From the IMG/VR virus record IMGVR_UViG_3300047547_000167, positions 28,928-92,927 of that record: a stretch of DNA of 64,000 nucleotides. One strand, written 5' to 3'. A model generated the notes under the pieces. It was not told the origin of the DNA and made no database searches. It was given only the letters and a program-made list of their open reading frames with translations. The position numbers and the translations under genes were made by a program. Positions within the stretch are counted from its first letter, which is position 1. Each line of letters begins with the position of its first letter. This document shows, one piece after another, positions 2,063 through 17,201 of the stretch. Source of the DNA: a virus.

Positions 2063-4852
2063 TCAGATTGGGGGCTCGTCGTCGTCCAGGACCAGGGACA
2101 GCGGAACGGTGATGACCTTGCTGTTGGTGCCCGCGTACTTCCGCGTCCGGTTCCCGTAGTTGGTCGCGCCAGGCAGGCGTGACAGCTGGCCGCGAAGGTC
2201 TGTCACGTAGGCCGTGTCCTTCACCAGCGCATTCAGGTTGGTCGAGCGCACGCCGAACAGGATGGCCTTGTCCTCGATCATCATCCCGTTTCGGCGCAGG
2301 ATATCCATGCAAAGTGGGCCGCCAATCGAGGTCGAGCTGACCTGGCGGCCAACCGCCTCGGACAGAATCTCGTGCACGGTCACGTCGGAGTTCGCCACGC
2401 GAATCTTGGCCTCCATGATGGCAGCCAGGGCCTTCTCTGGATCGCCAGGCCCGCCGGACACGTCGGTGTGGTCCGTCCAGTCGTAGCTGTTGATCATGGC
2501 CAGCGCCTCGGCTTCGCTTGCCACCTTGCTGGACGTCAGGCACCACGTACCGGCCAGCAGCGTGCCGTACTGGTCACCCTGGCGCTGCGTCCCAAACCGA
2601 GCGGCAGCGACCCGGCAGAACACCTCGACGTTGGCGATGACAGTGGGCAGCAGCCAGAGGCCGCGAGCCAGGATGCGGGCAGGCCAGGTGCCGTCGCGCT
2701 TGATCTTGTGGAGCGACTCCTCCAGCTTTTGCCACTGGTCGTCCGACGCGCCCGACTTGGCCGCAGGCCTCAGCACCAAGGGCGTGATGCGAGACTGGTC
2801 CGAGTCCTTGTCGAGCATGGTGTTGATCGAGGCCACGCAAAACATCGACCGGATGTGGAACCGCATGGAGTCGCCAGAAACCGTGCCCTTGGCCGTCTGG
2901 TGCGCGCCTTCGGATGACGACTGGCGCATCAGCATCATGATGGACTTCATGCGTTTGCGGTCGCCCTCGTCGTTGGGCTCGAACTCGTCAATCAGCGCGG
3001 GAACAGCGTCCGCCCGCAGGGTTTGCCGGATGCCGGGCTCGGTGGAATCGCCCTGGAACGGCTCCGAGATGCCAGACAGCAGCGCCTGAACGTAGTCACT
3101 CTGGATTGTGGACTTGCCGGACCCGGCCGCGCCAGTGATCCAGACGTGGGGCCGCCAATTCAGCGCGCCACCAATCGGGCTCAGGAACACCCAGCCCGCC
3201 AGCAGCGCAGCGGAGCCGGGCCGCGTCCAGCGCGCCATCTTCGCCACTTCGAGCATGTGCTGGCCATCCTCGTCGGACAGCGGCGTCTCGGCAGGCGGCG
3301 TCATGGTCCGCGACATGGGATAGACCCAGCGCGACTCGATATCGGTTATGTCCGTCCGCACGCCATCGACGGACAGGTAGTCGCCGTGGTGGAAGACCGC
3401 CCGGCCATTGTCGCGCCAGGCGCCACGGCCGCGTACATTCCGGGGGTCGTACACGCCACGCTTGTGAGCAATTGCCATGATCCACTCGAAGGCCTGCACG
3501 CGGTTGACGCCGCCTTTGTCGCCCGGGAAATGCATCTCCCACCAGTTCGTGGGGGCCAGCTCCGCCAACCCCATGTCGCTGAAGTCCTGCCGCGAGCGGT
3601 GGAGCACCATCCGCTTGGCGCGGTGGAAAAAATAGTAGTAGTCGCCGTCGTAGCCCAGGATGGCAAAGTGCCCGTGGTCGAGAAGCGCCTCGTCTTCGCC
3701 ATCCAGCGCCGGGATTGAAGGCTGGCCTTCCGGTGGGGGCTCATCGGGCGAGGCGGGCTCCCCCTCCCAAGGCGGCAAATCATCAGGCGGCACCGGCGCA
3801 GGCGCAGGAGCCAGCGCGGCATCAATGACGCCGGCCACGGCCTCCAGCCCCTCGGACTGCTGCAAGTCGTTGAAGTCGCCAGGAGGCGGCACGGCCACCA
3901 GGCCGCCGACGGCATCGGCCGCCTTGCGCGCAGCGGTCACGCCAGGGTTGCCCGCCGTCTGGGTGTCGTTGTCGGCAGCGAACAGGATGATGGCGTCGGG
4001 CTTGGCCGCGCGCAGCTTCTCGGCCACGCGCAACAGGTTCGAGGTGTCGAAGCACACCAGCACCAGGTGGCCGGTGGCCGCGTGCACGCTGGCACACGTG
4101 GCGTAGCCCTCGCCCAGCACGTAGACCACCCGGCCGTCGTGCTGCCGGGGCTTGCCGATTGGGAAGAAGTTGCCCGACTTGGCCCCGTCTTTGAAAAAGC
4201 GCTTCTTGCCACCTTCCTCTGGGTCGATGCCCTGAAGGCTCCAGAGCTTGCCCTTGTTGTCCTTGATCGGGATGAGCAGAGACTGCTGCGTGACCACGAA
4301 CACCTCGCCGGTGTCGGGGTCCACGCGCTCCCAGGTGCCCACACGCAAGCCGTAGGACGAAACGCCCTTGCGGGCGAGGTAGGGATGGGCGCCGCCAGGC
4401 GAAGCCGCGTCCCAGATTTGCTGGGCACGCACGGCGCGCTCTTCATGGAGCGCCGCCTCTTCAGCGGCGGCCTGGGCGGCACGCTCAGCAGCCCGAGCGC
4501 GGTCGGCGTCGATCTCGGCCTTGGAGCGCTTCTTGTGGGTGCCAGCGTCCACCCAGCCCGCCGACTTGGCGTCGTAGAACAGGCTGGCAATGGTCAGCTT
4601 GCCCGCCGTCTTGATCGACTTCCACACCGACTTGGCCGCGCCAGCGCTGTAGCTGTCGCACTGGGAGCCCCACTGGTCCCAAATTTCAAAGCCCTCGTCG
4701 GGAAACTCGCTCTTGATGCAGGTCGCGGCGCGAACCCAAACCTCACGGCTCGCCGGGTTGAGGTAGCTCAGCGCAGACCGGACACGCTCAATGCTGGTGG
4801 CGTCATGCATAGACGCCCCTGAAGAAAGATGAAGACAAACCGCACTCCCCAC
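2063..4852 (-). CDS. primase-helicase (PriCT-2-like N-terminus, TOPRIM, P-loop helicase)
   Basis: TOPRIM GEGYAT...AADND; Walker A GAAGSGKS; Walker B LIDEFE. Start is GTG 4852 (SD GGGGAGGA) or ATG 4810. Confidence 0.88.
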   Translation of the reverse strand: MGSAVCLHLSSGASMHDATSIERVRSALSYLNPASREVWVRAATCIKSEFPDEGFEIWDQWGSQCDSYSAGAAKSVWKSIKTAGKLTIASLFYDAKSAGWVDAGTHKKRSKAEIDADRARAAERAAQAAAEEAALHEERAVRAQQIWDAASPGGAHPYLARKGVSSYGLRVGTWERVDPDTGEVFVVTQQSLLIPIKDNKGKLWSLQGIDPEEGGKKRFFKDGAKSGNFFPIGKPRQHDGRVVYVLGEGYATCASVHAATGHLVLVCFDTSNLLRVAEKLRAAKPDAIILFAADNDTQTAGNPGVTAARKAADAVGGLVAVPPPGDFNDLQQSEGLEAVAGVIDAALAPAPAPVPPDDLPPWEGEPASPDEPPPEGQPSIPALDGEDEALLDHGHFAILGYDGDYYYFFHRAKRMVLHRSRQDFSDMGLAELAPTNWWEMHFPGDKGGVNRVQAFEWIMAIAHKRGVYDPRNVRGRGAWRDNGRAVFHHGDYLSVDGVRTDITDIESRWVYPMSRTMTPPAETPLSDEDGQHMLEVAKMARWTRPGSAALLAGWVFLSPIGGALNWRPHVWITGAAGSGKSTIQSDYVQALLSGISEPFQGDSTEPGIRQTLRADAVPALIDEFEPNDEGDRKRMKSIMMLMRQSSSEGAHQTAKGTVSGDSMRFHIRSMFCVASINTMLDKDSDQSRITPLVLRPAAKSGASDDQWQKLEESLHKIKRDGTWPARILARGLWLLPTVIANVEVFCRVAAARFGTQRQGDQYGTLLAGTWCLTSSKVASEAEALAMINSYDWTDHTDVSGGPGDPEKALAAIMEAKIRVANSDVTVHEILSEAVGRQVSSTSIGGPLCMDILRRNGMMIEDKAILFGVRSTNLNALVKDTAYVTDLRGQLSRLPGATNYGNRTRKYAGTNSKVITVPLSLVLDDDEPPI

Positions 4853-4856
4853 GGAA

Positions 4857-4941
4857 TCCTCCCCGACAAGTAAAGGTGGGCGGCGCGCACAGGGGGAGGA
4901 CTGCGCGCGCCTTTTCAGCCGGTAGCTAACCGGCGTAGCCC
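4857..4941 (-). promoter_or_regulatory. structured 5' leader of the primase gene; anti-SD loop complementary to its RBS
   Basis: GGGC..GCCC closes two hairpins (GCCGGT-tagct-ACCGGC and GGCGCGCGCAG-TCCTCCCC-CTGTGCGCGCC); the loop is complementary to GGGGAGGA at 4864-4857. Confidence 0.65.
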
Positions 4942-5011
4942 AAAAACGATTGTGGCCACACGGCGACCGAGTCGCTGACGTGAAGCCGGGAATTCGTGTG
5001 AAGGCTGCATC

Positions 5012-5455
5012 TTACAGCGGATCGGGGGCGCTCCCACGCCGCCATGCTGCAATAATTTCAACAGCCTGCTCGGGCGAGCTGGCAAACCCAGCGATCCCGC
5101 CAGCGCGGTGCATCTGCTGCACGAAGTTGATCTGCGCGTCGCGTTTGCGACCGCCGCCGCTGGCCTTGCACTCCACGCCAGTGAAGACGGGGATGGTTCG
5201 GCCCACCATGTCTGGGGTGATGACCACAGGGGTCCAGCCTATGAGGTCGGGCGCCCCTTGGAGCGGGTCACCAGTCGGAAGCGCAAGACCCAAAGCCACA
5301 GGGCGACTGCCAGGCGGCAGAACAACGGAGCCGTCGTTAAGCCGCCTGACCTCGCCATGACACACCCAGCCCTTGCCAGTATTCAACCTGAACAGGCGAC
5401 TGACCGGCCCGAGGGCCAGCCACACCTGGCGCATGACGGTGGACTCGGTAGCCAT
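5012..5455 (-). CDS. VRR-NUC family nuclease (putative Holliday junction resolvase)
   Basis: GAPDLIG...FTGVECKA...Q..F PD-(D/E)xK signature; ATG at 5455. Confidence 0.82.
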   Translation of the reverse strand: MATESTVMRQVWLALGPVSRLFRLNTGKGWVCHGEVRRLNDGSVVLPPGSRPVALGLALPTGDPLQGAPDLIGWTPVVITPDMVGRTIPVFTGVECKASGGGRKRDAQINFVQQMHRAGGIAGFASSPEQAVEIIAAWRRGSAPDPL

Positions 5456-5976
5456 CAGCGGGGCACCACGCGGTAGGCGATCACGTCGCTGGGGAGGCCT
5501 CGATGCTCCCAGATGAAAATCGAGGCGCGCCCCATGCGGGGAATCTTGCCACGGCGCTGGCACTCAACGACCACGCTGGGGCCAACGGGGGCCGTCCCAC
5601 CACTCCACTTGATCCACCAGCCAGTAGTATCCACCACCGCCCCAGCAAACGCCACGCTGTCCGGGTCGTACTCAGGCGGCGGCGGGATGACCACGGCGTC
5701 GGCAGCGGCATCCTCGTCCAGCATTTCCAGCCGACGCGTCAGCGTGTCGATGGCTTCCTGCACGTCGCGCCTGAAGTCCTTGCCAGCGCCACGGCCACCA
5801 GGGGCGACCAGCTTCTTGATGGCGTGCCCCAGGGCCTGGTCGGTGACGCCGAACAGGTCCAGCATGCGGTAGATGTCAATCTCGCTCAGGTGGGCTACCG
5901 AGCGGAAGTAGTGGGCGTGTTTACGTGCGCCAGCCTGGTTTTTGCTTTGGGTTGTGGACGTCATGGTAGTGGTCAT
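5455..5976 (-). CDS. hypothetical phage protein (DUF3310-like N-terminal region)
   Basis: HYFR...IDIYRMLDLF...HAIKKL...GGRGAGKD...DVQEAI pattern, common in phages. Confidence 0.6.
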   Translation of the reverse strand: MTTTMTSTTQSKNQAGARKHAHYFRSVAHLSEIDIYRMLDLFGVTDQALGHAIKKLVAPGGRGAGKDFRRDVQEAIDTLTRRLEMLDEDAAADAVVIPPPPEYDPDSVAFAGAVVDTTGWWIKWSGGTAPVGPSVVVECQRRGKIPRMGRASIFIWEHRGLPSDVIAYRVVPR

Positions 5977-6394
5977 CGGGGTAAGCCAAGTGAATCTCTC
6001 TGTGGTGAGGTGGACAAAGCCAGATCACATCAAGGGGGCGGGAGTAGTCAGGGTGGTGCGCCTCAACGTCCGCAGCGCCACAGCACGCGCAAGGCTGCTT
6101 TGCCAGCCTGCCGGTCTTCAAGGCGGCGGCCACTGCGCCGTTTGCTTTGTAGCGATCAGGAAACCGACGCCGGTATTCCGCCGTTCTCTCATGGCCGAGG
6201 TGGACACGGTGCGGGAGTTTTGACCGCTCACGGTCATAAGCGCGTATCGCGTCGCCGTTGGCGCGACGATGCTCAAGCATGTCGCGCTTTGTGCACGCCT
6301 TGCATTTGTTGAGGTGTCCATCCGCCATCATTTTGTGCCGGTAGAACTCCGACAGCGGCTGGCAAACACCACACTTGAAGCACGCTTTCACCAA
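5921..6394 (-). CDS. HNH-type endonuclease with Zn fingers
   Basis: CxxC...CxxC N-terminus; CACCG...EAHHPDYSRPLDVIWLCPPHH. Confidence 0.75.
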   Translation of the reverse strand: MVKACFKCGVCQPLSEFYRHKMMADGHLNKCKACTKRDMLEHRRANGDAIRAYDRERSKLPHRVHLGHERTAEYRRRFPDRYKANGAVAAALKTGRLAKQPCACCGAADVEAHHPDYSRPLDVIWLCPPHHREIHLAYPDDHYHDVHNPKQKPGWRT

Positions 6395-6846
6395 GGCCCC
6401 CGCATCGGAGCGAATGGGATGTCGTCATCCATTGCGCCATACCCACCACCAGCAGGCGCGGCAGCCGGTGCACGCGCTGGCGCGGGAGCAGGAGCTGGTG
6501 CGCCGCCTTCAGGCTTTGCCCCCAGCAACTGGAAGTCCTGGCCCCGCACCTCGGTGACGTACTTCTCGGCCCCGTCCTTGTCGGTGTACTTGCGCACCGA
6601 GAACTCGCCGTTCGCCCGCATCTGCGAGCCCTTCTTGGCGTACTGGCCAATCAGCTCGGCGGTCTTCCCAAAGAACGAGAACGGCACCCAGGTGGTCTGC
6701 TCCTTCATTTCACCGGTGGCCTTGTCCTTCCACTTTTTGCCCACCGCCAGCGAGATGTTCACCGCCGCGTCGCCGTTGGGCATGCGGCGCACCTCGGGAT
6801 CACGCCCCAGGCGTCCGATGACGCAAACCAAATTCAAATCAGCCAT
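6388..6846 (-). CDS. ssb: single-stranded DNA-binding protein
   Basis: LNLVCVIGRLGRDPEVR OB fold; acidic tail DDDIPF. Confidence 0.95.
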   Translation of the reverse strand: MADLNLVCVIGRLGRDPEVRRMPNGDAAVNISLAVGKKWKDKATGEMKEQTTWVPFSFFGKTAELIGQYAKKGSQMRANGEFSVRKYTDKDGAEKYVTEVRGQDFQLLGAKPEGGAPAPAPAPARAPAAAPAGGGYGAMDDDIPFAPMRGPW

Positions 6847-6873: not shown

Positions 6874-8484
6874 TTAGAAGGCCCGTGATTTGCCCGAATT
6901 CTTGCGCTGCCGCGCGTTCCACAAGTGTTGCGCCCACCCCCGGGAATAACCACGCTGGGCCGCGATCTTCTCCAGCTCCTCCAGCGTTTTCGCCCCCGCC
7001 ACCTCGACCTTCTTCTGTCGCTTCAACGCTTCCTCCATTTCCGGGGTGATCTCGGCCAGCTCGCCGTCCACGTGCTCGGGGCCCTTGCGGACGCGCCCTG
7101 GGATGGCGTGCCCGCAATTGGGGCAGACGTGCTCCTGGCCAGCGGGCCGGTCCTTGGGGTCGAAAACCGAGTAGCACTGGGGGCACTGCGTGAGGTCGAT
7201 CTTGGGCTCGTCGTCCTTCTTCTTGCCCTTCTTCTTTTTGATGCCGTCCAAGTCCCACTCGCGCTCGGCGTCGGCGAAGCCGTGCTTCTGCCAGAGCCCG
7301 CAGTGGTCGATGACAAAGCACTTGCGCCCCTTGGGGCCGGCGTCGATGGCCGCAAAGCGCTGCTCCGCAGTGTCCAGCGGCATGCCGGGCGCGAAGATGG
7401 GGCGCAGTCCGCGCCCGATGGTTTGCAGGTAGGACGACAGGCTCATGGTGAGCCGCAGCAGGATGACGGCGCCGATGGCCGGGCAGTCCACGCCTTCCAC
7501 TAGGAGCATGGCGAACGTGATCAGCTTCAGACGGCCGTCGGACAGCATCTGGAGCGCGCGGTCGCGTTCCTCGCTGGTGTTCTCGCCCGACAGCGCCAGC
7601 GCCGGGATACCGGCGGCGTTGAACTCCTCTGCGACGTGCCGGGCGTGGGCCACGTTGGTGCACCAGGCCACAGCTGGAACACCGGGGCAGATTTTCTTGT
7701 ATTCAGCGATGGCGCTCCCGGTGATGACGGGCTTGTCCATCAGGTCGGCCATGGCGTCGGCGTCGTAGTCGCCGCCCACCTTCTTCACGCCAGACAGGTC
7801 GATTTGCTGCTTGGAGGCGAACACGGCGGGCTTCACAAGATAGCCGTTGGCTATCAACTCCTTGATGCTGATACCCTGCACCATGGTGTCAAAGCAGCCG
7901 CCAGCGTGGCGACCCAGGCCCTTGCCGTCCAGGCGCACCGGGGAGCCGGTCACACCCAGCACGCGGGCCTGGGGCCACGCGGCCAGGATGTCCATGTAGG
8001 ACTTGGCGGCGCTGAGGTGGCACTCATCGATGACGATCAGGTCGAAGCCCACGCCCACCGCCTTCATTTTGTCGATGCGGCGCACCAGCGTCTGCACGCT
8101 GGCCACTTGCACCAGGCGGCGAGGGTTGGGGGTGAACCCGGCCATGATGATGCCGTGCTGCACGCCGTTGTCGTCCAGCTTGCGGCTGGCCTGTTTGATG
8201 AGCTGGTCGCGGTGCGCCAGGATGAGCACGCGAGAGCCTTTAGCGGCGGCCGACTTGGCGATGTAGCTGAACACGACCGTTTTGCCGGCACCGGTTGCAG
8301 CCACCAGCAGGACGGCCTTATGCCCGTTGCGGTACTCGATGCGGACCTTGTCCACGAAGTCGTGCTGGTAATCGCGCAGGCTCACAGTCGGCGCAGGCGC
8401 GGCTGGTCGAGCAGCAGGCGCGGGCCTTGGAGCGGCTGCATTGATGGCGGCAGCCAGGCGCCCGGGTTGATGGGGAGCGTTCAT
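6874..8484 (-). CDS. SF2 (DEAH) helicase with C-terminal Zn finger
   Basis: LRDYQ, ATGAGKT, DECH, TGSP, EGVD, QTIGRGLR; CPQC/CPNC. Confidence 0.93.
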   Translation of the reverse strand: MNAPHQPGRLAAAINAAAPRPAPAARPAAPAPTVSLRDYQHDFVDKVRIEYRNGHKAVLLVAATGAGKTVVFSYIAKSAAAKGSRVLILAHRDQLIKQASRKLDDNGVQHGIIMAGFTPNPRRLVQVASVQTLVRRIDKMKAVGVGFDLIVIDECHLSAAKSYMDILAAWPQARVLGVTGSPVRLDGKGLGRHAGGCFDTMVQGISIKELIANGYLVKPAVFASKQQIDLSGVKKVGGDYDADAMADLMDKPVITGSAIAEYKKICPGVPAVAWCTNVAHARHVAEEFNAAGIPALALSGENTSEERDRALQMLSDGRLKLITFAMLLVEGVDCPAIGAVILLRLTMSLSSYLQTIGRGLRPIFAPGMPLDTAEQRFAAIDAGPKGRKCFVIDHCGLWQKHGFADAEREWDLDGIKKKKGKKKDDEPKIDLTQCPQCYSVFDPKDRPAGQEHVCPNCGHAIPGRVRKGPEHVDGELAEITPEMEEALKRQKKVEVAGAKTLEELEKIAAQRGYSRGWAQHLWNARQRKNSGKSRAF

Positions 8485-16037: not shown

Positions 16038-17201
16038 ATGCCAAAACTCACCAAGACCACCATCGACAACCTGAAGCCCGCCGCCACCGAGCAGTGGGTC
16101 TGGTGCTCCGAGCTCCCCGGCTTTGGGGTGCGCTGCCAACCCAGCGGCAACAAGACCTACATCGCCCGCTACCGCACCCAGGACGGCACCCAGCGCAAGC
16201 AAAAGATCGCCCGCACCTGCGACATGCCACCGGACAAAGCCCGCGACCTGGCGCGCAAGGTCTTCGCCGCCGTAGCCGAAGGCAAAGACCCCAAGCAGGA
16301 CCAGCGCGACGCCAAAGCCGCGCCAACGGTCGCCGAAATGTCGGCCCGCTACATGAAGGAACACGCCGAGCCCTTCAAGAAGGACGCCAGCGTGCGCAGC
16401 GACGCCAACAACTGGCGCCTCCACATCCTGCCAGCCATGGGCAGCAAAAAGGTGCGCGCCATCACCAAAGCCGACGTGCTCAGCCTCATGGGCAAGATGA
16501 CCGACAAACAAGCCGCAGCCAACCAGGTGGTGGCCCTGCTCAGCAAGTCCTTCAACCTCGCCGAAGACTGGGGCTGGCGAGACGCCAACAGCAACCCCTG
16601 CCGCCGCATCAAAAAGTACAAGATCGCCGAAAAAGAGCTGATCCTCAGCCCCGCCGAAATCGGCACGCTCGACAAGACCATGACCGACATGGTGGGCAGC
16701 GGCACCCTGCGCCCCGAGTTCGCGTCCTTCATCCGCCTGCTCATGCTCACCGGCTGCCGCAAGAGCGAAGTCATGCTGGCCCGCTGCGAGTGGATCGACC
16801 TGGAACGCGGACTCCTGCTCCTGCCCGACTCCAAGGTCGGCCAGCGCAAGATCGCCATGTCGCCAGCAGCCATCCAGATCGCCAAGGCGCTCATGGCCAA
16901 CGGCGGCGAATGGCTCATCCCCGGGCGGCGCGTCGGCAAGCCGCTCCAGACCCCGTACAAGGTGTGGAAGGCCGTGAAGGAAGCCGCAGGCCTGCCCATC
17001 GAACTGCGCCTCCACGACCTGCGCCACAGCGCCGGGTCACTGGCACACATGGCCGGCGCCAGCCAGAAGCAGGTGGCCACCATGCTGGGCCACAGCCAGC
17101 TCAGCACCACCGAGCGATACCTGCACGGCCTGACCGGCGACGCGGCCGCCACAGCGGCCAAAATCGGCGACGTGATAACGAAGGCATGGGCCACGGCGTG
17201 A
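16038..17201 (+). CDS. int: tyrosine integrase with arm-binding domain
   Basis: W..ELPGFGVR...KTY arm domain; TGCRKSE, HDLRH, LGHSQLSTTERY catalytic residues. Confidence 0.95.
   Translation: MPKLTKTTIDNLKPAATEQWVWCSELPGFGVRCQPSGNKTYIARYRTQDGTQRKQKIARTCDMPPDKARDLARKVFAAVAEGKDPKQDQRDAKAAPTVAEMSARYMKEHAEPFKKDASVRSDANNWRLHILPAMGSKKVRAITKADVLSLMGKMTDKQAAANQVVALLSKSFNLAEDWGWRDANSNPCRRIKKYKIAEKELILSPAEIGTLDKTMTDMVGSGTLRPEFASFIRLLMLTGCRKSEVMLARCEWIDLERGLLLLPDSKVGQRKIAMSPAAIQIAKALMANGGEWLIPGRRVGKPLQTPYKVWKAVKEAAGLPIELRLHDLRHSAGSLAHMAGASQKQVATMLGHSQLSTTERYLHGLTGDAAATAAKIGDVITKAWATA

Follow-up and report, generated by a model that had tools for sequence, protein, structure and literature searches.

The stretch of DNA analysed here, called the window throughout, comprises 64,000 nt of the 92,927-bp IMG/VR virus record IMGVR_UViG_3300047547_000167 (record positions 28,928-92,927). 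Its minus strand carries a replication module made up of a helicase, SSB, an endonuclease-like open reading frame (ORF), a VRR-NUC nuclease and a primase, and the phage also carries a tyrosine integrase and is therefore temperate. Between the VRR-NUC and primase genes lies a gap of 200 nt that houses, on the same strand, a three-way-junction RNA of 67 nt. One of its loops is complementary to two boxes further along the primase leader, and the second of these boxes is the Shine-Dalgarno (SD) sequence of a short upstream ORF (uORF) whose stop codon overlaps the primase start (Table 1). The element is a genuine regulatory RNA, and no Rfam family matches it. A first-pass annotation, made by a model from the sequence alone, had likened it to small antisense RNAs of phages P1 and P4; that analogy was good, and the target that it named was misassigned.

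Table 1. Features of the primase leader and of the surrounding replication module, in window coordinates (features of the leader first).
Feature	Position	Strand	Remarks
Three-way-junction RNA	4875..4941	-	67 nt; from fold, covariance models and covariation
Closing stem P1, GGGC/GCCC	4941-4938 / 4881-4878	-
Hairpin A, GCCGGT-TAGCT-ACCGGC	4934-4918	-
A-rich linker TGAAAA (UGAAAA in RNA)	4917-4912	-
Stem B	4911-4901 / 4892-4882	-	11 bp, one G.U pair
Anti-SD loop of stem B	4900-4893	-	8 nt; UCCUCCCC (DNA letters TCCTCCCC)
ACC directly 3' of P1	4877-4875	-
Box 1, GGGGAGGA	4857..4864	-	perfect 8-nt complement of the loop; SD-like, mostly without a start codon
Box 2, GGGGAG	4845..4850	-	second complement of the loop; SD of the relay uORF
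Relay uORF	4803..4838	-	TTG 4838, 11 codons; TGA 4805-4803 overlaps the primase ATG (ATGCATGA)
Start hairpin, GGCGUC-UAUGCAU-GACGCC	4799..4817	-	primase AUG in the loop; predicted in folds
Hairpin U, GGCU...GGCC	4954..4987	-	GCGACUC motif near the tip; 12 nt 5' of the junction
TAAGAT, possible -10 box	5009..5014	-	tentative; overlaps the VRR-NUC stop codon
Primase gene, PriCT_2 and Toprim	2063..4810	-	915 aa from ATG 4810 (929 aa from GTG); Pfam and PHROG matches
VRR-NUC nuclease gene	5012-5563	-	5' of the primase leader
Endonuclease-like ORF		-	replication module
SSB	6388-6846	-	replication module
SNF2-type helicase	6874-8484	-	replication module
Tyrosine integrase	16038-17201

Relatives of the element were found through protein-guided and pattern-guided scans of IMG/VR and of metagenomes, and then with a covariance model, R1, that was built here. 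Nine distinct versions were obtained: that of the window and those of the loci L007, L008, L018, L019, L048, L096, L139 (with L150 and L174) and L164. Each of the nine is flanked by a VRR-NUC gene and by a primase gene of the same family, and they score 66-110 bits with models R1 and R2. The N-terminal 270 residues of the primases are 48-88% identical in amino acid sequence to those of the window. Comparisons of whole leaders cover 10 aligned leaders.

The junction parts listed in the first-pass annotation, together with the loop and box 1, are all present on the minus strand, coordinates included, and the minimum free energy fold of positions 4950-4840 is exactly this three-way junction. Its energy is -54.6 kcal/mol (z = -3.1 against dinucleotide shuffles), and 1 of 200 shuffles folded as well. 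The ends read UUUUU-GGGC...GCCC-ACC-UUU, with U/A-rich single-stranded flanks on both sides, and GGGC...GCCC-ACC with a U-rich 5' flank recurs in all nine variants. The 3' strand runs unbroken from stem B into P1, giving a coaxial helix of 15 bp that is followed by R-C-C, the contact that RNase P uses (PMC4919922), and this continuity resembles the passage from T stem to acceptor stem in transfer RNA (tRNA). P1 is supported by its invariance and by its stacking on stem B. RNAalifold, run on a MAFFT alignment of whole leaders, gave a weak pairing of CC/ACC with box 1 in place of P1; this pairing was set aside because the P1 columns are misaligned in that alignment.

The structure is more than a chance fold, and it is kept in the nine variants with compensatory changes. 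Among the nine sequences, 97.9% of cells are paired, 10 of the 21 pairs have changed on both sides, and there are 24 extra pair types; these counts come from an alignment that was fitted to the model, which gives them a slight lean towards structure. None of 500 column shuffles reached any of the observed pairing values, and in a control where the 3' partners were slid along the alignment, pairing fell to 36-58%. Both hairpins covary: hairpin A is wholly replaced in L096 and L164, and stem B of L139 carries three double changes. That the primase leader holds a conserved structured RNA is thus borne out by covariation. A count of 16 G.U cells, set against no more than 2 A.C cells, places the structure in the primase-strand (sense) RNA; a DNA-level structure, or a countertranscript read from the antisense strand, is ruled out by this asymmetry. 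Comparison of the sequences in this way shows both the fold and its strand.

The loop, P1, ACC, box 1 and the start motif TATGCATGA are invariant or nearly so, despite primase N-termini that fall to 48% identity. The loops and junction strands are likewise invariant, among them the A-rich linker and the AGCU of loop A, the latter in seven of the nine variants and not in L096 and L164. This AGCU is part of a self-complementary UAGCUA (4924-4929, minus strand), which could serve in loop-loop dimerisation or in a tertiary contact.

The loop of stem B mimics the anti-SD sequence of 16S ribosomal RNA (rRNA). The first-pass annotation had noticed that it is exactly complementary to GGGGAGGA, which occupies 4864-4857 and ends 4 nt short of a GTG at 4852. 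Complementarity to this downstream box is kept in every variant. Counting both strands of the 92,927-bp phage, GGGGAGGA occurs twice, as box 1 and as the complement of the loop, and about 6 chance copies would be expected by an estimate from base composition. The loop is invariant save for one extra C in L008, and it is predicted to be unpaired with a probability of 1.0 whenever stem B forms. Its duplex with box 1 is calculated at -15.2 to -17.7 kcal/mol across the variants; in L139, where box 1 reads GGGGGGGA, the pairing is retained through G.U. Box 2 is the second-best target of the loop in every variant, at -11.3 to -17.7 kcal/mol. In seven of the nine variants the complementarity extends 1-2 bases into the top of stem B, which is the variable, G.U-rich end of that stem, as we would expect if binding opens it. 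The linker between ACC and box 1 is 9-13 nt long and A/U-rich, and is conserved in length and not in sequence. Box 2 follows box 1 after 3-6 nt and precedes the uORF start by 4-6 nt, the two boxes being spaced 11-14 nt apart. No further GGGGAGG box was found 5' of the junction.

Box 1 had been taken for the ribosome-binding site of the primase, with GTG 4852 as the start codon, and neither assignment holds among the relatives. The GTG is in the primase frame in the window alone, and no other variant has an upstream in-frame start. In six of the nine variants (L007, L008, L019, L048, L096 and L139) a stop codon in the primase frame intervenes between box 1 and the ATG, with L008 and L048 lacking any start codon behind the box, and all nine homologues begin with MH(D/E) at the ATG equivalent to 4810. 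The primase start is therefore ATG 4810, and GTG 4852 was rejected as a conserved start on the evidence of these frames and stops. Box 1 has a start codon behind it only in the window and L007 (GTG) and in L018 (ATG, opening an ORF of 5 codons), and the frame differs each time; at the aligned place there is none in L008, L019, L048 and L139. In L007 and L008 the GTG after the box stands in another frame and begins a short ORF, which the TGA of ATGCATGA terminates. Box 1 is conserved as strongly as the loop although most variants have no start codon behind it, and its position corresponds to the 5' edge of the 30S footprint on the uORF start.

Two side observations concern this GTG. Only in the window phage is it in frame with the primase, which would allow a form with 14 additional aa; its counterpart in L007 lies in the uORF frame.

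Three parts of the leader were absent from the first-pass annotation: box 2, the relay uORF and the hairpin at the primase start codon. The uORF is present in all 10 leaders, where it starts with TTG or GTG, runs for 10-12 codons with no internal stop and terminates without exception at the TGA of ATGCATGA, where it overlaps the primase ATG. The encoded peptide shows no conservation, and uORF length varies only in steps of 3 nt; for example, a 3-nt insertion that separates L139 from L150 leaves the frame intact. Around the primase AUG, the start hairpin shows a compensatory flip in L164 (GCCUC...GAGGC) and, as we read it, a shifted register in L018, L048 and L096. Several variants have, again in our reading, no recognisable SD sequence before the primase ATG. 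As the case contrary to its own proposal, the first-pass annotation had named translation from ATG 4810 independently of the upstream SD; the start does lie there, and the independence most likely does not hold, since the uORF that ends there begins right behind the boxes. The alignment of leaders shows, in addition to the conserved loop and boxes, the overlap of uORF stop and primase start, the start hairpin and the true start itself.

The element is restricted in its distribution. The nearest primase relatives of the phage lie in Burkholderiaceae genomes, and the element was not found at the closest bacterial-genome primase relatives (L001-L006), nor at the viral loci L011 and L012. When remoter primase loci (8, then 61) were searched with the covariance model, 60 of the 61 were without it, and the sole match, L198, is the L096 contig. 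A covariance-model search of 151 genomes from the family of an Acidovorax genome with a primase relative gave one chance match, 5' of an unrelated gene, and blastn of the leader against GenBank phages gave no match. Looser DNA patterns returned other stretches (107 viral and 72 metagenomic) without a convincing model score, which we read as chance matches, and a loop-independent pattern (P1, ACC and the start motif) recovered from IMG/VR only contigs that were already known, with no loop variants. Given its absence from other primase relatives, the element is a trait of one phage lineage, a small set of uncultured temperate phages, and not of the primase family.

Two further loci, L199 and L207, whose primases are 51-52% identical to that of the window, have no anti-SD junction. 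They keep the remaining layout, with a promoter-like TTGAGG-18 nt-CATAAT (1261-1300 in L199), an upstream hairpin, a uORF of 22 codons ending in ATGAATGA and a start hairpin. Because L199 and L207 retain the relay without the junction, the uORF relay is the most secure part of the mechanism proposed below, and it is older than the junction. Positions 1340-1510 of L199 (and the same region of L207) hold a possible three-way junction without the anti-SD loop, also followed by ACC, and its fold is no better than that of shuffles (z = -0.4).

The closest bacterial-genome primase relative, at L001 (2720-2985), is 82% identical and belongs to a Burkholderiaceae metagenome-assembled genome. Its primase gene stands directly behind an AlpA-like small gene, with a plain SD sequence and no leader, which suggests that the locus is a P4-like integrative element rather than a phage of the present type.

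Comparison with known systems centres on C4 of phages P1 and P7 (RF01695, clan CL00128) and on CI of P4. C4 arises by processing of a longer transcript, and a ribosome-binding site is occluded by its loop (PMC5320573). RNase P cleaves hairpin-like substrates other than tRNA, including C4 and P4 CI, and pairs with the substrate's 3' end (PMC5499578); the contact with that end is RCC(A)-L15 (PMC4919922). In the P1 record (L264), C4 measures 77 nt, with G8344, preceded by a U, as its first base and ...CCACC, at 8420, as its 3' end. The next 40 nt hold both targets, a2 and b2, of which b2 is at the ribosome-binding site of icd, and icd overlaps ant1. The Rfam C4 consensus reads uuuuAu-GG...CC-aCC-cuu. 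The same layout is found here, and the earlier comparison with P1 C4 and P4 CI was apt: both RNAs are three-way junctions, with a closing stem and two hairpins, in the leader of the transcript that they control; both begin with G+1 behind a U-rich flank and have ACC immediately 3' of the closing stem; both are followed within about 40 nt by two complementary boxes, of which the distal box is located at a leader ORF's ribosome-binding site; and the end of that leader ORF overlaps the start of the regulated gene.

There are also differences from C4. Covariance models detect no similarity in either direction. The closing stem here is 4 bp stacked on an 11-bp arm, whereas that of C4 is about 17 bp, and the junction strands are arranged differently. 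A single generic anti-SD loop serves both boxes here, in place of the specificity sequence of C4, and there are no upstream a1/b1 copies; the Rfam model c4-a1b1 gave no match. The leader ORF has 11 codons here and 73 aa in P1, and the regulated gene is a primase instead of an antirepressor. As an analogy, then, the functional likeness to C4 and CI is strong, whereas membership in the C4 family fails. The first-pass annotation had also proposed comparing homologous leaders, which yielded the covariation described above, and an Infernal/Rfam search, in which the region, the bare element, five variant loci and the whole window matched no family. ARAGORN found no tRNA or transfer-messenger RNA in 4000-6000, and Rfam gave no tRNA match.

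P4 CI is a short RNA processed from an untranslated leader, and its pairing on the same transcript blocks the P4 replication genes (PMC4825925). The present element is, like CI, complementary to its own transcript, and it would share with CI the derivation of a short RNA from a leader and control of the phage's own replication genes. CI, in contrast, pairs with seqA upstream and seqC downstream and causes premature termination of transcription, whereas here the two boxes are both downstream, no terminator is predicted, and translation initiation at the uORF is the likely target.

Control of plasmid rep genes offers a second parallel. In R1 (CopA/tap/repA), IncI1-IncB (Inc RNA/repY/repZ) and IncI2 (repR/repA) plasmids, rep synthesis requires translation of an overlapping leader ORF, and its level is set by RNA binding just 5' of the ribosome-binding site of that ORF (PMC8053102). 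Here too a leader ORF overlaps the start of a replication gene, and the start region is in a hairpin. The plasmid inhibitors, however, are countertranscripts of the opposite strand, whereas the G.U asymmetry places this element on the messenger RNA (mRNA) strand, with no antisense promoter seen; the IncI/IncB plasmids, moreover, require an activating pseudoknot. A further resemblance is to Mycobacterium tuberculosis ppe2, where a short uORF, under the control of a structured riboswitch leader, is needed for the downstream gene through termination-reinitiation (Kipkorir et al. 2024, PMC11260477). That leader senses vitamin B12, whereas no ligand pocket or alternative-fold switch is evident here.

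The best overall explanation, and one that we regard as evenly poised, is that the leader contains an embedded antisense module that sets the amount of primase. The primase AUG at 4810 has a weak or absent ribosome-binding site of its own and lies within a small hairpin. Ribosomes that finish the 11-codon uORF (4838-4803) would stop at the UGA of AUGCAUGA and reinitiate at the primase AUG, and this is probably the main route of primase synthesis; that such a relay feeds the primase we consider highly likely. The junction, which is very stable, displays its loop as a mimic of the 16S rRNA anti-SD sequence, able to pair with box 1 (8 nt, perfect) and with box 2, both within about 40 nt downstream. 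Such pairing should bar 30S subunits from the uORF and hold primase synthesis down, and on balance we lean towards a repressive role for it.

The junction is also probably cut out by RNase P and trimmed at its 3' end, to give a stable RNA of about 67 nt. G+1 after a U-rich flank and an invariant ACC after the closing stem are found as in mature P1 C4, and they make RNase P release probable. Once released, the RNA could build up as transcripts and genome copies increase in number, and could affect later transcripts in trans, which might provide negative feedback on replication and silencing in the lysogen; by analogy with C4, release combined with trans action is a tentative proposal that we place on the doubtful side. 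The most far-reaching form of the explanation seems to us rather unlikely. According to it, antisense RNAs with tRNA-like ends that RNase P releases would have evolved a second time, independently, and the element, with its generic 16S-mimic loop, would belong to this lineage, unrelated in sequence to C4/CI. It would accumulate with genome copy number and, by shutting the relay uORF, feed back on phage replication, acting as a plasmid-style copy-number controller and immunity factor of a temperate phage of about 93 kb.

GGTA..AT is invariant in all 10 aligned leaders (as TAAGAT or TATTAT), whether it is coding or lies past the VRR-NUC stop codon, and in L199 and L207 the TTGAGG-18 nt-CATAAT pair stands at the equivalent place. 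From its position and conservation, the TAnnAT box may mark an internal promoter that serves the primase leader. The possibility that the junction and the U-rich tract after ACC make up an intrinsic terminator was considered and set aside, as the Us start 3 nt past the stem and are weak in several variants.

A number of observations weigh against the antisense module. A sigma-70 promoter scan of 4700-5200 on both strands found no promoter, and the sole terminator-like site in the leader (4854-4840) is no more than shuffles gave, so that no terminator is predicted. Every transcript carries its own inhibitor, which leaves relief of repression unexplained. Since the loop and the boxes never vary, their pairing is not provable by covariation; conservation of the CCUCC-like loop and of the GGAGG-like boxes could in each case reflect binding to some other partner, and any mutation of a box alters its pairing both with 16S rRNA and with the loop. 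Pairing of all eight loop bases requires the top of stem B to open. Masking box 1 in silico brought no consistent change in the accessibility of box 2 or the uORF, so the sign of the regulation is not settled by modelling, and repression is deduced from position. P1 and ACC are invariant, and covariation therefore gives no test of either; when whole leaders are folded thermodynamically, P1 appears in 5 of the 10 variants. L199 and L207 run the uORF relay without an anti-SD junction. With respect to C4, its Rfam model (gathering threshold 45 bits) matched neither 901 nt nor 86 nt of the window with E <= 10 allowed, and none of the five variant loci with E <= 1 allowed, with P1 c4 scoring 68.8 bits as a positive control; conversely, model R2 gives P1 c4 1.5 bits.

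As an alternative, the junction would never be released and would act purely in cis as a constitutive damper, its loop forming a pseudoknot with box 1 or invading box 2 to fix uORF and primase initiation at a low level. Each transcript would then supply inhibitor and target in a one-to-one ratio, folding predicts a free loop as soon as stem B has formed, and a linker kept in length only is what a tether reaching back along the 15-bp coaxial helix would need. This explanation is nevertheless unlikely. It accounts neither for the invariant G+1 and ACC ends and U-rich flanks that mirror mature C4 nor for the retention of two boxes, and a weak SD sequence alone could give fixed damping.

The ends of the junction and its flanks also admit a different explanation, that of an intercistronic element for processing or stability. 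The junction and hairpin U would then be sites for RNase P, RNase E or RNase III, or a protective 5' structure, and the complementarity to the boxes would be a by-product of having a C-rich loop beside strong SD sequences. Hairpin U folds at its position in all 10 variants with differing stem sequences, shows pairs that have changed on both sides (RNAalifold) and is also present in L199 and L207; a processing site, a 5' stabiliser and a protein site are all possibilities for it. The tRNA-like ends, the U/A-rich single-stranded flanks on both sides and the location between two genes of one operon agree with such an element, and RNase P is known to process mRNAs and operons (PMC4919922). It would leave unexplained, however, why an exact 8-nt complement that is unique in the genome is kept in all variants, and why box 1 is conserved without serving a start codon, and we consider it improbable.

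The leader could alternatively contain a protein operator, in which the primase, SSB or a protein of the ProQ/FinO or CsrA type binds the junction, the GGA boxes or both and represses the uORF. A precedent exists in the IncI2 plasmid protein PcnR, which binds a stem-loop in the rep leader-peptide mRNA (PMC8053102), and the invariant loops and junction strands (AGCU of loop A and the A-rich linker), as well as two boxes spaced 11-14 nt apart, could be read as protein contacts. Such an operator is quite improbable, as no candidate protein was identified and the perfect RNA-RNA complementarity would be left without a reason. Finally, it is very improbable that the element is a trans-acting anti-SD small RNA (sRNA) directed at host mRNAs in the manner of CcsR or 'cuckoo' RNAs, with the leader boxes as a cis sponge only: its loop would match any strong host SD sequence, and its only Rfam look-alikes are the C-rich-loop sRNAs CcsR1, 6C and CC3664, the first two sharing a GC-rich stem with a CCUCC-type loop, but their scores, far below threshold, are 13-15 bits against gathering thresholds of 47-65 (CcsR1, RF02791, 13.4 against 65.3; 6C, RF01066, 14.5 against 47), CcsR1 and 6C are free-standing genes and not leader-embedded, no promoter or terminator of its own was found for the element, and its position is fixed relative to the boxes, the uORF and the primase.

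To our knowledge, few phage regulatory RNAs of the C4/CI type have been characterised, all of them from enterobacterial phages. The element in the primase leader has the logic of these RNAs in common with them, being a leader-embedded RNA with tRNA-like ends whose target lies at a relay ORF's ribosome-binding site, the relay ORF in turn feeding a key gene. Its fold is different, its loop is a generic one directed against ribosome-binding sites, and it is placed before a replication gene. At the least, the aligned variants make it a covariation-supported candidate for a new RNA family, and the primase start is corrected to ATG 4810. If the antisense mechanism is true, this control design arose more than once, and it links replication control in phages to the leader-peptide and antisense circuits of plasmids. 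It would also provide a compact example of how an rRNA-mimic loop might act in cis or in trans.

A minor observation concerns the gene on the 5' side of the leader. The listed VRR-NUC ORF, from GTG 5563, overlaps the preceding ORF of 173 aa by about 109 nt (5455-5563, minus strand), and its Pfam match is restricted to residues 102-160. The true VRR-NUC start probably lies further downstream than GTG 5563.

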